A DNA stretch of 64,000 bases, from assembly GCA_951406725.2 (NCBI GenBank), contig OX597833.1, positions 48,050,001 through 48,114,000 on the forward strand, in the 5' to 3' direction. The notes under the pieces are model-generated. The model saw nothing but the letters and a program-made list of their open reading frames with translations. It was not told the origin of the DNA and ran no database searches. This document shows, in pieces, positions 3,830-46,542 of this stretch. This DNA comes from Octopus vulgaris. Lineage: Eukaryota. Made by a program: the position numbers and the translations under genes. The stretch's first letter is position 1. Each line of letters opens with the position of its first letter.

Positions 3830-4478
3830 GTATCACTCAGGCTTGCGAGGAAGGGATGGCCTCCCTTTGCAAATACTCCAAAGACACAGATATTGTGTTT
3901 AGAGCCAGCTAGAGACGAAGATCTCTTGGGGCTATAAAGCTACAGTAACAACCCCCTCCCCAATGTGGTTAGCCATGATAAGATGGCTTCTATACTTTAC
4001 ATTACAGTATATAGTTCTTTCTTTATTTTAAAGACTTTGTAAGGTTGGAAAATTCTTGTTGTTCTCACGTGATTGAGTTAATACTTTTCTCCTAAAAATG
4101 ATTATCAATTTGAATTGCTAACCAGTAAATAATTTGCCAATTATATAATCTAGATTGCTACATTAACACCAGAACACGGGAATAACTTGTAAAAGGATTG
4201 AACAGAACCATAACATTTTCTTCCTTTGGTTTTTTATTTATTTATTTATTTACTCTTTTACTCTTTTACTTGTTTCAGTCATTTGACTGCGGCCATGCTG
4301 GAGCACTGCCTTTAGTCGAGCAAATCGACCCCCGGGACTTATTCTTTGTAAGCCCAGTGCTTGTTCTTTCGGTCTCTTTTGCCGAACCGCTAAGTGACGG
4401 GGACGTAAACACACCAGCATCGGTTGTCAAGCAATGCTAGAGGGACAAACACAGACACACAAACATATACACACACAT

Positions 4479-4514
<36 letters not shown>

Positions 4515-4588
4515 TCGGGGTGAGTACTTGATAATTATAAGCACCTGTGTATACCGTTTGGTGGTGTAGGTGGTGGAGTAAATTGTGC

Positions 4589-4666
4589 GCGGCTGAAGAA
4601 GGCCACAGACATACATTATGCATTGTTATAAATCTGTCTAATAAAGGCCCGAAACATATGTACCGC
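4589..4666 (+). ncRNA. Type-I hammerhead ribozyme
   Basis: gcgg-CTGAAGA-aGGCC...GGCCc-GAA-ACATATGT-A-ccgc; perfect stem I, palindromic stem III, GUA cleavage triplet. Confidence 0.8.
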
Positions 4667-5877
4667 TGAATCCTTCGCATCATGTTTTTATTTTATTTTG
4701 ATCAATTTATATATATATATATATATACATATGTATGACAGGCTTCTCTCAGTTTCCGTCTACCAAATCCATTCACAAGGCATTGGTCGGCCCAAGGCTA
4801 TAGCAGAAGAGACTTGCCCAAGATGCCATGCAGTGGGACTGAACCCGGAACCATGTGGTTGGTAGGCAAGCTACTTACCACACAGCCAGTCCTATTTTTG
4901 TAAAATTCCTTTTTTAATTGGCGTAACAAAACATTTCAAACTAGTAGAAGCAAATTTCTTCATTTTCCTCTTGCCATTTCTTTTATGTCTAATTTTGCAA
5001 ATATATTTTTATGCTGTTAAAATAAATGTGTTTATAATTGTTTGCTCTTTCTACCTTCAAACCACAAAAACTGGAAATTATCCCTTTAACATCTAAATCA
5101 TCCATATCCAACCAAAATATTCTACCAGTTTTATGTTTGAATTGGACAGATTTGGCCTGTTGCATCTACCCTACAGTGTCATTCTACAAAATAAACAATC
5201 ACATCATTGAATTCTGAGAGCCACAAGATAATGTACAATTAATTCAAACCAATGTGAATAAATAAGCATTGCATTTGACAGAGTAATCTGAATGCTAAAG
5301 ACTTAACTCTTTCAATACTAACCCGGCTGAAACCAGCTCTGATTCTGTAAAACAAATGTCTTGTTTTCATAAGTTTTGAATTAAAATCTTCCACTAATCC
5401 TTAATTATAATTCATGTTCCTAACACTAGCTTTATGATAACTAAGTTATTTTACTAAATTCTTTGTTATATTTAAAGTAATTGAAAGGAACACAGAGCAT
5501 CTCAAAGTTCCATGTAGTGGGACGGAACCTGGAATAATATTGTTGAGAACAGTTATTTTGACTAGCAGGACCTGTGAATATTTCATGGAATTAATGGTAA
5601 ATCTATTGGATTATTTCTGAAAACTTCTGAAAGTCAAAGTCAACCTCTGGGTTCAAATTCCGCTGAGGTCGACTTTACCTTTCATCCTTTCGAGGTTGAT
5701 AAATTAAGTACCAGTTACACACTGGGGTCGATGTAATCGACTTAATCCGTTTGTCCCCTCTGTGTTTAGCCCCTTGTGGGTAGTAAAGAAATATATTTCT
5801 GAAAACTTTATCCCAAAACCTGAAAGTGGAGCCTGTGTTGTGTCTATATGGAAAGATAGTCACTCATCTGCTACTCA

Positions 5878-9200: not shown

Positions 9201-9837
9201 TGTTAGATATTTTTATATAAAAAAAGACTTGTTATTTAAAATATTTGTATTTTTAACCCTGAAATTTTCATATTGATATCAAGTATGATAATTTTTATAA
9301 TTTGCATATAGCGACATAAAAATACACACACACATGCATATTAATTAACATAATTAATTAAAGAAAAGGTTGTAAATGATTCTGAGGTTTTGGCTTACTT
9401 GTCTTCAGACTGTACTTAACTGGTGTACTTTTTGGATCTGTATGGTCTTTGGTAAGTTGTTTTATGGGTTGGTTATGTAAATGATAATTAGGTGTGATAC
9501 AGGTTGACCAAGGAAGTAGTTGTGTAGAAAGTAGAGGTAGAGGAGGACAGGAGCAAAGTGTATATAAGGCATAGGTTGATAGAAAGTTACGGTGAGGAGA
9601 TTTGTTTTGGTTTGATGTAGGAATTTTGTAATTGTTTAGGGTTCAGTCAGGCATGGAAATAAAGGGTAATCAGATGTGTTAAATTCAGATTATGACATTT
9701 TCTTTTAGAAAGTTGTTGGTTTGTGGTGCTGCATATACACACACACACACACACACACATACATACACACACACACACATAAACACACACACATATATAT
9801 ATAATGACAGAGATGGAAGATATGAAAACCTCTGTTG

Positions 9838-9943
9838 ATCACTACAATCGTTTCAACCCATCTAGCACCAATCCTTCATGGATAGGATACTATACAGTTG
9901 ACTTGGGTGTATCCCTTGGTGTAGGTGTGTCTCCTCAGGTGAT
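9838..9943 (-). ncRNA. Type-I hammerhead ribozyme with long branched stem II
   Basis: Minus strand: atcac-CTGAGGA-GACACACCTACACCAA...TTGGTGCTAGATGGGTT-GAA-ACGATTGT-A-gtgat. Confidence 0.72.
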
Positions 9944-10522
9944 TTCAAGAGGTATCTCCTTAAAATAAATTCTGTTTCACACAACTTATTTCTGCATGTT
10001 TTCTTCTTGGCCTTTGTTTATAGAAATGGCAAATTATGGCATACATCTTCGTTCTTATGGAAGATTCACAACAGAGATGAGATACAAAAAGAAACAAATA
10101 TACAATATATGCATATATACACATACAAATGTGTGTGTATATAAATACATCACTTTATATGCATATATGCATCGGACAATATGAGTGGATGTGAAAATGG
10201 GTGAGCTTATATGTATATGCATGCATATGAGCAGCTGTGTATAAATATACATTCATGTGGGTATATTTTTATCAGTACATGTGAGTATACTTACAAACAT
10301 GTAAGTCATTTGCTTATTATAAAATATAATAAAATAAATTATCTTTGCATGTCTTAAGTTGCAAAACAATTGTTGTGATACAAGTATATCCAATGGTTAA
10401 ATAAACTTTATCATACTATTTCTCTCATCATTTGTAACTTTATATATATATAAATTAGAAATAAAACCACTATAATGCAACTCATTGATAGACATAAACC
10501 AATACATAAATAAGAAATAATA

Positions 10523-19408: not shown

Positions 19409-19489
<81 letters not shown>

Positions 19490-19586
19490 TTTTAGATATA
19501 AATGATGTACTTAAATGGAGTTATGTTTTTAGCTTCTGCTTTTTCCATAGTCACATGTGAGTATTTTATTTATATTCCCTCGTAAG

Positions 19587-19646
19587 CTCTACTGACGAAG
19601 AATGTATCCTTTATAGGATTAATTCCGAAATTGATTCAATATAGTG
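19587..19646 (+). ncRNA. Type-I hammerhead ribozyme motif
   Basis: ctcta-CTGACGA-aGAAT gt ATCCT ttat AGGAT ta ATTCc-GAA-ATTGA t TCAAT-A-tagtg. Confidence 0.65.
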
Positions 19647-20019
19647 ATAACGAAATTTAAATTTTCTAAAGGTTAGTTGCCCGCTTTCAGTTCAATTTTC
19701 CTGTAACAAGTGGATTATAAGTGGATAAATCAGTGTATTGGCTTTAGAATAACCCTCTTTAGCCCTTAATTATAAGATGTTTATACTTCAACCGTAAAGG
19801 TTTTTTTAATATACTGCCACGCTTTTTGATGGAATCCTTTTTCTGTAGAGAAAGGGACTTCATCCTATATTGTTATATATATATATATATAGTTAATCCA
19901 AACATAAACAAAGAGAAAACACAACAACGTGAGGACATGGAACAAGTATAGTGTTATTGGATGCTCAGGAAAGGTAAGAAAGAAGGAGGATTTAACGTGT
20001 CGAGCTCCACTCAAAACAT

Positions 20020-20053
<34 letters not shown>

Positions 20054-26233: not shown

Positions 26234-26484
26234 AGTCTTTTTTTACTCTTTACTCTTTTACTTGTTTCAGTCATTTGACTGCGGCCATGCTGGAGCACCA
26301 CCTTTAGTCAAGCAAATCGACCCTAATTCTTTGGAAGCCTAGTACTTATTCTATCGGTCTCCTTTGTCGAACCGCTAGGTTACGGGGTACGTAAACACAC
26401 CAACATGAGTTGTCAAGCGATGTTGGGGTAACAAACACAGACACACAAACATATACACACACATATACATACATACACATATTC

Positions 26485-28057
26485 ACTGTTGAAAGTCAAA
26501 ATGTACCATCTTCACCATCACTAACAGCAAACTCCATAACAACTATGGAATTTACACCTGCAATGCTGCGACGTCACCTTCAAAATAAGCGCAACTATGC
26601 CTCCCCTGGTCTCGATGGAGTTACATACCTGCTTCTCAAACGTGGCAGGCACTTCCTTTTACACCAGCTTTCTATTTTCTTCCAGTACTGTCTCAACAAT
26701 GGTGCTACTCCGGAGCAGTGGAAAACTGCCAGTGTCATTCCTCTGTTCAAAAAGGGCGACCGCACATCACCTGTCAACTATCGCCCAGTCAGTCTCACTA
26801 GCTGTATTGCAAAACTGATGGAATCGTGTGTCAGAGAAACACTCTGGAACTTCTGGAGCTCTCACAGTCTCATCCGACCCTCACAATATGGATTTGTCCC
26901 TAACTCCAGCTGCAGTGAAAGATGTTTTATATGACACATTCTACCAGTGTCCGAAGTTTGACAGTGTTTAGTTGGAAAAAATTACTTTTTAAATCTGTCG
27001 GTCAAGAGGTAAAGACCCTTTGCAGTTAAATGAAGGAGATTTTCGTAGGTAATTGGGTGTCACAGTTCTAGGACAGCACTCTACACCATATGAGATGTCA
27101 TCGGGTGTACCACAGGGATCTGTCCTTGGCCCCCTCTTGTTTGTGGCATACATTAACGACATAGATGCCAATTTAAAGAATGCCACAGTATTGAAATATG
27201 CAGACGACATCAAGCTGTACCTTGAAATCAAGAGGACAGATCCTGATGTCTACAACTCTTTCCTGCAATCAGACCTAGACACAATGCAGCAATGGATCAC
27301 AGACTGGCAACTGAAACTGGCTGTGGACAAGTGTACCACCATGCATTTTGGGAGAAAAAACCCTGCGTTCACATACTCCCTCCACAACACTGATATCAAG
27401 AAATCCTCTTGCGAGCGTGACCTAGGCATCACTGTCAGCAGTGATTTGCGTTGGTCAAAGCATATCTCTAAGATTGTCAGGAAGGCCGAGGGTGTCTTGG
27501 CATCACTCAGCAGGTCTTTTGTTAGCCGCTCTCCAGCCATCTATTTAAAACTGTATACAGCTATGGTACGACCACACTTGGAATTCGCATCATCAGTTTG
27601 GAACCCCTATCTTGCACAGAACATTGACCTCCTGGAATCTGTCCAGAGACGTGCAACCAAACGCATACGAGTATATCTGACACCTAAATATATTCTGAGC
27701 TTTGTTTCCCTGGGCATGATTCACTGAAGCTCCGGCGTTTGGCGACGGACTTGGTAAACACCCACAAAGTTATCAACCACCTCACCAACAACAACACTGA
27801 ACACCTTTTTGATCTCCATGTGTCTAACACACGTGACATGCCTACAAAGTCAGAAAACAATACAGCTCCCATGACTTTCGGAAACATTTTTCTGCACGCT
27901 CAGAGTTGCTGAAGCATGGAATAAACTGCCTGCGTCAGTTGTTGACTGCCATGACACTGCATCTTTTAAGGCCCTCATGCTTTCCCAAATTCCACAAACT
28001 TCACCTGATTATATATACACTTTAGATGAGTTGTAGTGCACCTGAGCACTGTACACA

Positions 28058-30959: not shown

Positions 30960-33900
30960 CTGCAAAAGAAAAGAAAGAAAAAAAAAAGGTAACATTGTTA
31001 ATTATATTTATAAGCAGGTTATATTTTATTTGTTTATATTTAGAAATTATCTCTCATCTTTATATATAAAAGTCAAGTTGTGAGTCTGTCTCCTACGATT
31101 TAGATTCCTAACTACTCCCACATTTTGCAGTGCAGTTTAACCAAAACCGGGTATCTTATAGTCGTGATTCATATCGAGCCCTTCTGGGTATTAGCGCGCG
31201 TCTACGATGATTCTACGATTTTAAAAAAAATTTACCATCATTTTTTTCCATTTTAAAGCATTTTTTCGCTATTATATAAGGGAAGTAACTCTCTAAAAAT
31301 GTCTACGATGAGTCAACGATTTAAAAAAAAATTTACCATAATTTTTTTCCCATTTTTAATGCATTTTTTTGCTATAACTCTCTAAAAATGCTTATATAGT
31401 TATTTCCCTTACAAACCCGAGCAACGCCGGGCGATACTGCTAGTTTAAGATAAAACAATTATTGAAGTAGATATTGACACCATGAAAAAAACAAAACAAA
31501 AACACTGAATATCTATAGAAATCATTTCATTTTAACTTCATCAAAGCTGACCAAAATCATTACTTCAGTTGTTGAGTACAAATATATGTACACTTTATTT
31601 CTCTGGGAATTTTTAATTCTAATAGATTTTAATGCTTGGAGTATTAAAAAGCTAACTAGATATAATTATGTGATTAAAGATAAAGCAACATTAGACTAAT
31701 AGAGCAACATCAAGGACTAATATATTTTACAGTTCTATATTTAAGAGATGAGGAATTATGTACATTATTTACATTCGACAGATATTTGTCCTCATCTTGT
31801 TTGTTGTTAACATAACATTTCGGCTGATATACCCTCCAGCCTTCATCAGGTGTCTTGGGGAAATTTCGAACCAGGGTTCTCATTCCTAAGGTATTCTTCG
31901 ATGTTATTATTATTATTATTATTGTTCAGGTCATTGCTTGGAATCGAACTCAGAATCTTGGGGTTAGTAGCCCATGCTCTTAACCACTATGCCACATGCC
32001 CGTGGGCAATTGTGGAGTGAATTTTAGAATAATAATAATAATAATAACATCGAAGAATACCTTAGGAATGAGAATCCAGGCTTGAAATTTTCCCAAGACA
32101 CCTGAAGAAGGCTGGAGGGTATATCAGCCGAAACGTGTTAACAACAAACAAGATGAGGACAAATATCCGTCGAATGTAAATAATATATTTTAATTTTCTA
32201 GAAGCATGAAAGACAAATTAGATGTTTCAGCCTTATCATAACCTCATTAGCAAAGCACTGTCTTCACCATACATGCTGATGTAGTACTGACTCAATCACT
32301 AAATGACATTACAAGATTGGTCGACACCAAAAGGGAAATTGTTTTGAAAATAAGAAGTCTGAGAAGCCATTTGCATTAAAAACAAGGTTAAGTTAAGAGT
32401 TAACATATTTATTGCAGGGAGAATTAAAAAGGTTACTAAAAATAATGGTAAAATCATTTTATAGTAAGATTAAATGTTTATGTGCATACTCTGCTTGCGA
32501 AGGTTGAGGCATGTGAAATCGAAATCAAATTCGATGACTGGCATCCGTGCTAGTGGAGCACTAAGAGCATCATCTGAGCATGATCGCTTCCAGAGCAGCT
32601 AACTGGCTTCCATGCAAGTGGCACATAAAAAGCACCATTTGAGCTTGATCGTTACCAGTGTCGCCTTAATGGCACTTGTGCTGGTGGCACGTGAAAAAAA
32701 CATTCGAGTGAGGTCGTTGCCAGTGCCACTGGACTGGCTCCTATGCAGGTGGCACGTAAAAAACACCAGTTAAGTGTGGCCGTTGCCAGTACCGCCTGAG
32801 TGGCTCTCGTACCGGTGGCACGTAAAAGCATCCACTACACTCTCGGAGTGGTTGGCATTAGGAAGGGCATCCAGCTGTAGAAATTCTGCCAGATCAAGAT
32901 TGGAGCCTGGGGCAGCCATCTGGTTCGCCAGCAGCCCTCAGTCAAAATCGTCCAACCCATGCTAGCATGGGTAGTGGATGTTAAACGATGACAATGATGA
33001 TGATTGTGTGTGTGTGTGTATGAAATTTTAGCCATATAAGAAGCACTGGCACTGGTGCCAAGTAGAAAGCATTCAGTACACTCTGTAAAGTGGTTGGTGT
33101 TAGAAGGGTCATCCAGCCATAAAAAACCATGCCAGAACAAGCAATGGAGCCTGATGCAGCTCCCAGATTTACCAGCTCCTGTCAAACCGTCCAACCCATG
33201 CCAGCACGGAAAATGGACGATAAATGATGATGATGAAGCAGTGTATTTGCATTCTAGATCTTTGACAAGATGGGCTTCATCTGCAGATTCATTGCGAATA
33301 GCATCACATATGTGAAGATTATCATCATCCTCATCATCATCATCGTTTAGTGTCCGCTTTCCATGCTAGCATGGGTTGGACGGTTCAACTGGGGTCTGGG
33401 AAGCCAGGAGGCTGTACCAGGCCCAGTCTGATCTGGTAGTGTTTCTACAGCTGGATGCCCTTCCTAACGCCAACCACTCCGTGAGTGTAGTGGGTGCTTT
33501 TTACGTGCCACCAGCACAGGTGCCAGACAAGACTGGCAATGGCCACGATTGGATGGTGCTTTTTACATGCCACTGGCAACGGCCACGTTCGAATGGTTCT
33601 CTTCTGTACCACCGGCACTGGTATCACAGCTACAATTTCCATTGATGTTGATCGATTTCGATTTTGATATTGATTTTTGAAGATGTGTTCAATTTTTTGA
33701 CACAAATTCCAACATATAAGAGACATGGTGTTGTAAGACAGTGCAATGGTTGTGATGTTCAAGGAACTGTACTAGACATCACATTGCTATGAACACAAAC
33801 CATACTACAATAACCAATGCAATACGTCACTAAGTAAGGTACATAACTCTTCTTGCTGATATTTTATTTTCACTCTTTAGCATTCAAATTATTCTCTCAA

Positions 33901-46083: not shown

Positions 46084-46542
46084 GGATCTTTTCGGTTTGA
46101 ACGGCAGTTTTTTCTAGCGGTGTCATATGAAATTGTCACCCATAATTATGACCCTAGTATCGATCTATTGCATTTCAACCTGTTTTAGGGTTAGGGTTAG
46201 AGTTAGAGTTAGTTAGGGTTATGGTTAGGGTTAAGGTTAGGGGTGGGGGAAGTGTATCTTTTTTTCTTCACAAATGTAAATAAACCTAATCTGTTGTTTA
46301 AACGAGGGACATATTCATACGGCACAGAATGTTTTCACCTCAATAGACGTCATTGAATGGTTGAAATTGCAGAAATTGAAGCAAAAAAAAAACAACAAAT
46401 ATCTTACAAACTATAGAATTTTCTCAATAAAGCCAAGAGGAAAAGATGTTTTATAAACACATTCTACCAGTTTACGAAGTTTAAAAGTGTTTAGTTACAT
46501 GGAAATTATTTTAAAAAACTGCCGTTCAAACCGAAAAGATCC
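46084..46542. mobile_element. TTAGGG-containing MITE, copy 1 (others 47585-48025 plus 48025-48172, 49043-49418 plus 49419-49583; decayed piece at about 26917-27020)
   Basis: TIR GGATCTTTTCGGTTTGAACGGCAGTTTTT / AAAAACTGCCGTTCAAACCGAAAAGATCC; internal degenerate (TTAGGG)n. Confidence 0.85.

Follow-up and report, generated by a model that had tools for sequence, protein, structure and literature searches.

The 200-base insert at positions 4510-4709 of the window (the whole stretch of Octopus vulgaris DNA that was analysed, 64,000 nucleotides in length) is made up of two pieces that lie back to front, and these are likely, with a probability that we put at roughly 0.7, to be the 3'-terminal part, consisting of pseudo-LTR and tail, of a Penelope-like retroelement (PLE) that carries a hammerhead ribozyme and targets (TA)n. 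The window copy is an inverted tail of 69-76 nucleotides (segment B) joined to a 5'-truncated segment that carries the ribozyme (segment A). The original prediction had read these bases as a 200-bp ribozyme element; that description did not hold, since the bases derive from the end of a longer repeat and have been rearranged, with an inversion junction at 4579-4585. The feature is real, a piece of a probable Penelope-like family, and had been partly misread. Its parts are listed in Table 1.

Table 1. Positions in the window of the insert's parts, the flanking tracts and the host SINE
Feature	Position	Strand	Remarks
Host SINE	4252..4893	-	Interrupted by the insert
Left (TA)n target tract	4483..4509	.	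27 bases
Segment B, inverted "tail"	4510..4585	-	Lies 3' of the ribozyme segment in the family; 69 bases beyond the proximal end
Inversion junction TAAATTG	4579..4585	+	Reverse complement of 4703-4709; loose ends before 4581 and 4583 in 4/4 runs
Segment A	4583..4709	+	Terminal-repeat segment, truncated at its 5' end, that bears the hammerhead and stops at the putative proximal start of reverse transcription
Predicted type I hammerhead	4589..4666	+	4-bp stem I, CUGAAGA core, long stem II, 2-bp palindromic stem III, GUA
Stem II	4600..4650	+	A4600 faces C4650; alternative register has A9.1 and a G4601-C4650 pair with one bulged C
Right (TA)n target tract	4708..4727	.	20 bases

The insert and its rearranged structure

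The insert lies inside the (TA)n tract of a minus-strand SINE, and its last two bases overlap the right-hand tract. The SINE has an internal CA/TA microsatellite and a short tandem tail at its 4252 end; the 4893 end carries what we take, from boxes read by eye, to be a tRNA-like head. All seven full-length sibling SINEs of the window lack the insert and have the CA/TA tract alone at the site, which, together with the flanking tracts, bears out the proposed placement in the microsatellite. No SINE sequence was lost at the insertion site in an alignment of six of the seven siblings (copy 54260 was left out); (TA)n would conceal any duplication of the target, so that the precision stated for the insertion cannot be judged. 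The claim that the insert is younger than the SINE also stood: the insert interrupts the SINE, the arms of which are 88-97% identical to the seven sibling copies, whereas members of the insert family are mostly at least 95% alike.

Within the window, the insert is a single copy, with neither a second copy nor a tandem, and the one 100-codon frame across it had no Pfam match. Since its ribozyme is antisense to the host SINE and the window offers no other copy to pair with, the lone ribozyme is likely an inert passenger, and the single insert copy is probably without function. In another copy of the SINE (from 2094), a different insertion occupies 2310 to ~2770, right after TA in the microsatellite, and we take it to resemble a decayed Tc1/mariner end. 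The SINEs of the window resemble those of octopus genomes, and the host copy, a putative CORE-SINE in the original prediction, has a possible counterpart by type in the octopus OR2 element, which has been named a CORE SINE (PMC4758252).

The seven bases CAATTTA at 4703-4709 recur inverted at 4579-4585 and form a 7-base inverted duplication, and 3-5 bases at the junction are common to segments A and B (microhomology). Read along its own strand, segment B is rich in A+C, which make up 26 of the first 35 bases. Contigs from sequencing runs gave a different arrangement: in 26 contigs, from 4/4 runs, the DNA upstream of 4581/4583 differs from that of the window. Record 9 of run X20 has 4583-4694 (plus strand) at its positions 63-174, followed by 4585-4519 (minus strand) at 178-244, with no differences, and the same A-then-B order is given by a joint at 4584 and a loose end at 4585, both in run X10. 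The order in the family, from these three contigs and two runs, is upstream DNA, segment A (4583-4709) and then the reverse complement of segment B (4510-4585). Because the family has other DNA upstream of A and carries B reversed after A, the window copy is rearranged.

These observations largely refute the view that the insert is a (TA)n-targeting ribozyme element, complete and colinear over its 200 bp. Such an element would have clean (TA)n on both sides and be absent from the sibling SINEs, as is the case here; however, other DNA lies upstream of 4581/4583 in the 26 contigs of the four runs, B is reversed after A in three, and the window junction at 4585/4586 is crossed by none of the 26 contig records listed (there are 1085 further pieces). 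We regard a colinear element as extremely improbable.

Two more B|A joints have other breakpoints, one in run X4 (4585 to 4645) and one in run X10 (4567 to 4600, with three shared letters), and these might instead be alleles of the window locus that arose by deletion. The proximal end also recurs, because in one X10 contig the A terminus is followed by (TA)n; both junction types, the A terminus at (TA)n and the B|A joint, are therefore found more than once. This recurrence bears on the proposal that a plain truncated copy (A and then the tail) was inserted first and that segment A was later flipped between the inverted repeats that bound it, TAAATTG (4579-4585) and CAATTTA (4703-4709), or that the flip is an assembly error. 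None of the listed contigs spans the window junction, which is in keeping with either form of the proposal; however, the A terminus at (TA)n in another contig and the two other B|A joints argue against a late flip, and seven bases are very short for recombination. A later flip or an assembly error is, in our judgement, improbable.

The insert family is abundant and young, because many contigs match it, most of them with a likeness of at least 95%. Of 24 listed runs, 20, which came from 10 studies and bore three organism labels, contained half or more of the words sampled from the insert. Contigs matching 4490-4728 numbered 757, 289, 2 and 43 in four runs; at least 95% likeness to the insert was found for 541 of the 757 contigs of run X4 and 200 of the 289 of run X5. 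The depth of contigs, when summed, does not amount to a copy number and was not taken for one. The contig comparison spanned only 4490-4728 and skipped both (TA)n flanks, so that flank counts are incomplete; among 20 of the 57 loose ends, two further contigs of the family end in (TA)n, namely, the X10 contig that stops at the A terminus and an X5 contig that does so after 4632. These two contigs support the targeting of (TA)n that had been suggested, as does the finding that the loosest hammerhead descriptor has three matches in the window, all of them in segments that are bounded by (TA)n and cover 11% of it. The upstream motif of the family was not found above chance in the window (one match with a mismatch, against 1.69 expected). 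Subfamilies differ in their upstream DNA and in the 3' arm of the stem II extension, and a joint from 4630 to 4600 in run X4 represents a variant in which 4600-4630 is apparently duplicated inside stem II.

The hammerhead motif and the base of stem II

All parts of the hammerhead were found where the original prediction had placed them: stem I (4589-4592/4663-4666), CTGAAGA (4593-4599), the GGCC/GGCC base of stem II (4601-4604/4646-4649), GAAA (4651-4654), ACATATGT (4654-4661) and GUA, with the predicted cut after 4662. The core elements CUGANGA, GAAA and NUH stand in type I order, and three helices, of 4 bp, 4 bp (extendable) and 2 bp, surround the core. The motif occupies 78 of the 200 bases and does not, as had been stated, form most of the insert. 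The inner acaga/tctgt helix was not firmly confirmed: its pair probability is ~0.65, but an alternative register reaches ~0.33, and T4635C, which accounts for 36%, 26% and 11% of depth in runs X4, X5 and X10, respectively, disrupts one of its pairs.

In favour of the motif, a lax type I descriptor matched in only 10 of 300 block shuffles, a mean of 0.033 per 64 kb. Against it, a search of Rfam gave no hammerhead match at the gathering score or at E values up to 10; and the region folds no better than its shuffles (z of +1.0 and +1.3). The hammerhead is the minimum-energy fold of 4585-4670 and not of 4580-4685. An exact 21-base ribozyme motif had no match in metagenome contigs or in prokaryote genomes. 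A gapped pattern of core plus stem II picked out one viral and 34 metagenome loci, which we rejected as chance matches: none of the 35 has stems I and III, a result that again favours the motif of the insert.

Stem III has an energy of +2.4 kcal/mol as a hairpin and -7.0 kcal/mol as an intermolecular duplex, a preference that fits the action as dimers described for PLE ribozymes (PMC4209133). The predicted hammerhead would cut after 4662 mainly as a dimer, formed through the ACAUAUGU palindrome in tandem transcripts of the parent element. Its cleavage activity is not to be assumed, because no cleavage was seen for 8 of 9 Xenopus dimer elements (bioRxiv 10.64898/2026.07.22.740005). The construct originally suggested for transcription, 4560-4700, begins in the inverted tail and not in the natural upstream DNA of the ribozyme.

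The base of stem II can be read in two registers. The one with the A.C apposition has an energy of -10.9 kcal/mol, compared with -7.5 kcal/mol for that with A9.1, a G-C pair and a bulged C. The standard 10.1-11.1 pair is thus A.C in the more stable register and G-C, with A9.1 and the bulge, in the other, which resembles the extra A typical of PLEs. For hammerheads of PLE pseudo-LTRs, strong conservation of the G10.1-C11.1 pair is reported (Cervera and de la Pena 2014, PMC4209133), whereas in the insert this pair needs the bulged C and costs 3.4 kcal/mol relative to the A.C register.

In the contigs of four runs, no other letter reached 5% of depth at A4600, C4650, the core, stem I, the GGCC arms or stem III. 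Because this holds for both A4600 and C4650, the A.C apposition is a family-wide state, and the idea that it reflects decay of the window copy was rejected, as it is invariant at the 5% level across the family contigs. In so young a family, such invariance shows the state of the master copy and not selection. The claim that the A.C apposition recurs in a motif at 19587 was confirmed, with the motif at 19592, where the same register ambiguity occurs in an unrelated insert.

A mismatch at the base of stem II is already known and is not new: by our count from File S2 of PMC8557442, it occurs in 15 of 25 Hydra-clade elements, as U.U (14) or U.C (1), and one Chara element has C.A; none of those listed there has A.C. 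A search for literature on 10.1/11.1 mismatches in hammerheads found nothing relevant, and A.C may figure among published variants of PLE hammerheads. A natural hammerhead closed by A.C, if active, would widen the core geometry that is tolerated and would explain why standard models miss such motifs.

A probable Penelope-like origin and its alternatives

The insert combines a hammerhead near the 3' end, 5' truncation, an inverted piece, a tail at one end only and a (TA)n target. PLE insertions are 5'-truncated and often inverted, with an optional tail of 30-40 bases at one end (PMC8557442; PMC3846280). The predicted cut site lies 47 bases from the proximal end and 116 bases from the tail end. 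Against a Penelope-like origin, the tail has 69 bases; the family is known here from short contigs (with 30-letter loose ends) that show no link to a reverse transcriptase or GIY-YIG open reading frame; the A-then-B order comes from the three contigs and two runs described above; and the motif is no more stable than its shuffles and has no Rfam match.

We propose that the insert likely arose through target-primed reverse transcription that began at two separate sites. The endonuclease of the element would cut both strands of the (TA)n tract of the SINE. One target end would then prime reverse transcription at the distal end of the RNA (4510), where ~76 bases would be copied, and the other would prime at the proximal site (4703-4709), from where ~127 bases would be copied through the ribozyme; the two cDNAs would be joined via the 3-5 bases of microhomology. 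A comparable arrangement is known from PAc, a Poseidon PLE of the green anole (PMC11167929). Its optional tail is, in vitro, the stretch between two reverse transcription start sites in an AC-rich region; both strands of its target are cut, in AT-rich DNA; and its hammerhead lies upstream of the tail. PAc differs from the insert in that no microsatellite specificity is reported in the accessible text of PMC11167929, and the 69-base tail of the insert exceeds the 30-40 bases of described PLEs. Furthermore, the PAc open reading frame starts in stem II, and its ribozyme required protein in order to cleave, a step that insertion could do without. Another possible route to such an inversion, by analogy, is self-priming on an antisense template, which has been proposed for inverted PLE junctions with palindromes (PMC3846280).

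An alternative source of the two-piece structure would be a non-PLE LINE, or a sequence mobilised by one, that carries a hammerhead near its 3' end and was inserted by ordinary twin priming. Twin priming, known from the 5' inversions of L1, leaves an inverted upstream piece, a sense 3' piece and a microhomology junction, a geometry that the insert matches. LINE families that target microsatellites, such as Dong-R4, are listed as recently active in an octopus genome. However, neither poly(A) nor a tail of repeats stands at 4510, the site of internal priming is found again at one constant position, and a type I hammerhead with a palindromic stem III near the 3' end is the pattern of PLEs; we consider a LINE origin very improbable.

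It is also conceivable, albeit unlikely, that the parent was a short, nonautonomous PLE derivative or non-LTR retrozyme, with a unit of ~330 bases or more, possibly tandem and forming circular RNA, that a PLE enzyme mobilised in trans; the window copy would then be a rearranged piece of it. Like the insert, non-LTR retrozymes are short, noncoding, PLE-related repeats with a type I hammerhead and dispersed monomers (PMC7229834; bioRxiv 10.64898/2026.07.22.740005); animal retrozymes have been reported as pseudo-LTR derivatives with many solo monomers. The high copy number of the family, in which no open reading frame was seen, and the short palindromic stem III fit such a parent, as do at least 138 further upstream bases in record 2 of run X10 and a 372-base contig in run X20. 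In contrast, no tandem unit was seen in the window or in the short contigs and the insert is a lone copy in the window; the internal inversion with its one-sided tail and the (TA)n ends are marks of PLE insertion; a 51-base stem II region with a 4-bp stem I departs from the canonical 6-bp/4-bp form of retrozymes; and the accessible text of PMC7229834 does not mention microsatellites or target sites.

Among PLEs, the Hydra clade (Craig et al. 2021, PMC8557442) is likely the closest match by analogy, because almost all of its families insert in (TA)n and carry canonical hammerheads; by our count from the tables of that paper, 23 of 25 have theirs at a distance of 87-210 bases from the 3' end. 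The clade is marked by the reverse transcriptase and endonuclease motifs RWK, DKT and CxCX5C and by the lack of CCHH. The likeness extends to the type I hammerhead ~90-210 bases from the 3' end, a 4-5-bp stem I, a short, near-palindromic stem III and a stem II the base of which is often mismatched; one member has a 5'-truncated inverted copy, and one comes from octopus. The insert differs in having A.C where these elements have U.U or U.C and a 51-base stem II region where they have short hairpins, and its ribozyme differs from that of the octopus element Hydra-1_Obim. As a fragment without an open reading frame, the insert is not assigned to a clade, and Neptune is possible too. Neptune and Naiad PLEs share with it microsatellite targets, often (TA)n, and inverted, tailed insertions, and octopus Naiads are listed; however, Naiads are described as having no canonical hammerheads, and the octopus Naiad consensus ends that were compared do not show the insert motif. 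Three motifs of the insert had no exact match in the accessible portion of the Naiad, Chlamys and Hydra consensus file of PMC8557442, in which line breaks may hide matches. Identity with the octopus Naiad or Hydra-1_Obim consensus was rejected, since the motifs are absent and the ribozyme and ends differ.

PMC13282606 counts 31 Penelope-like families as recently active in an octopus genome, for which its main text gives no sequences. Literature on octopus hammerheads, taken outside the supplements of bioRxiv 10.64898/2026.07.22.740005 and PMC13282606, yielded no description of the insert family.

A more specific version of the Penelope-like origin can be offered only tentatively. The insert may belong to a very young, very high-copy, undescribed PLE family with an active master, the hammerhead of which is closed by A.C and not by the near-universal G-C and the tail of which is twice the usual length; its mini-insertions would map two reverse transcription start sites, each primed from one strand of the (TA)n cut, and GTGAGTA/TACTCAC might be a common cis signal. 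The integration of PLEs is still poorly known, and the model with two start sites comes from a single in vitro system. A family that is both young and abundant and has minimal inverted-tail insertions in (TA)n would make that model testable from genome sequence alone.

Other ribozyme-like inserts and repeats of the window

Two further (TA)n-flanked inserts with hammerhead-like motifs were found in the window. The first, at 19486-19873 (plus strand), contains the 19592 core, with A.C at the base of stem II, a GAAT/ATTC helix, a 4-bp stem III, a 3-bp stem I and a predicted AUA cut after 19641; its lowest-energy fold is not a hammerhead. It is followed by a further segment of 131 bases between (TA)n tracts (19892-20022). 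The other, at 9804-10440 (minus strand), holds a type I hammerhead with its core at 9938, a 5-bp stem I, a 2-bp stem III, a long, degenerate stem II and a predicted GUA cut after 9843. Homology among the three (TA)n-flanked ribozyme inserts was limited, among the matches listed, to stretches of 11-12 bases at E of ~2.

The motif GTGAGTA/TACTCAC occurs five times in the window, and three of these occurrences (4520, 10281 and 19557) fall in the three ribozyme inserts, which make up 1.9% of the window (post hoc p of ~7e-5 for the enrichment). Its orientation relative to the ribozyme is not uniform across the three. On one strand it has the form of a splice donor, and on the other that of a branch-point-like motif.

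An inverted pair of ~160-base repeats, at ~31760-31925 (minus strand) and 32028-32188 (plus strand), is separated by a spacer of ~100 bases. Each repeat has a hammerhead-like core with a PLE-type stem II (an extra A, then G-C), and the match ends at the same motif at both outer ends; the ~25 bases beyond the left copy may be a tail. At 26395-27727 (plus strand), two frames match RVT_1 (E of 6e-5 and 1e-16); this region is unlinked to the insert and is likely a LINE fragment. Finally, ~10 degenerate TTAGGG repeats occupy an internal position at 46185-46242.
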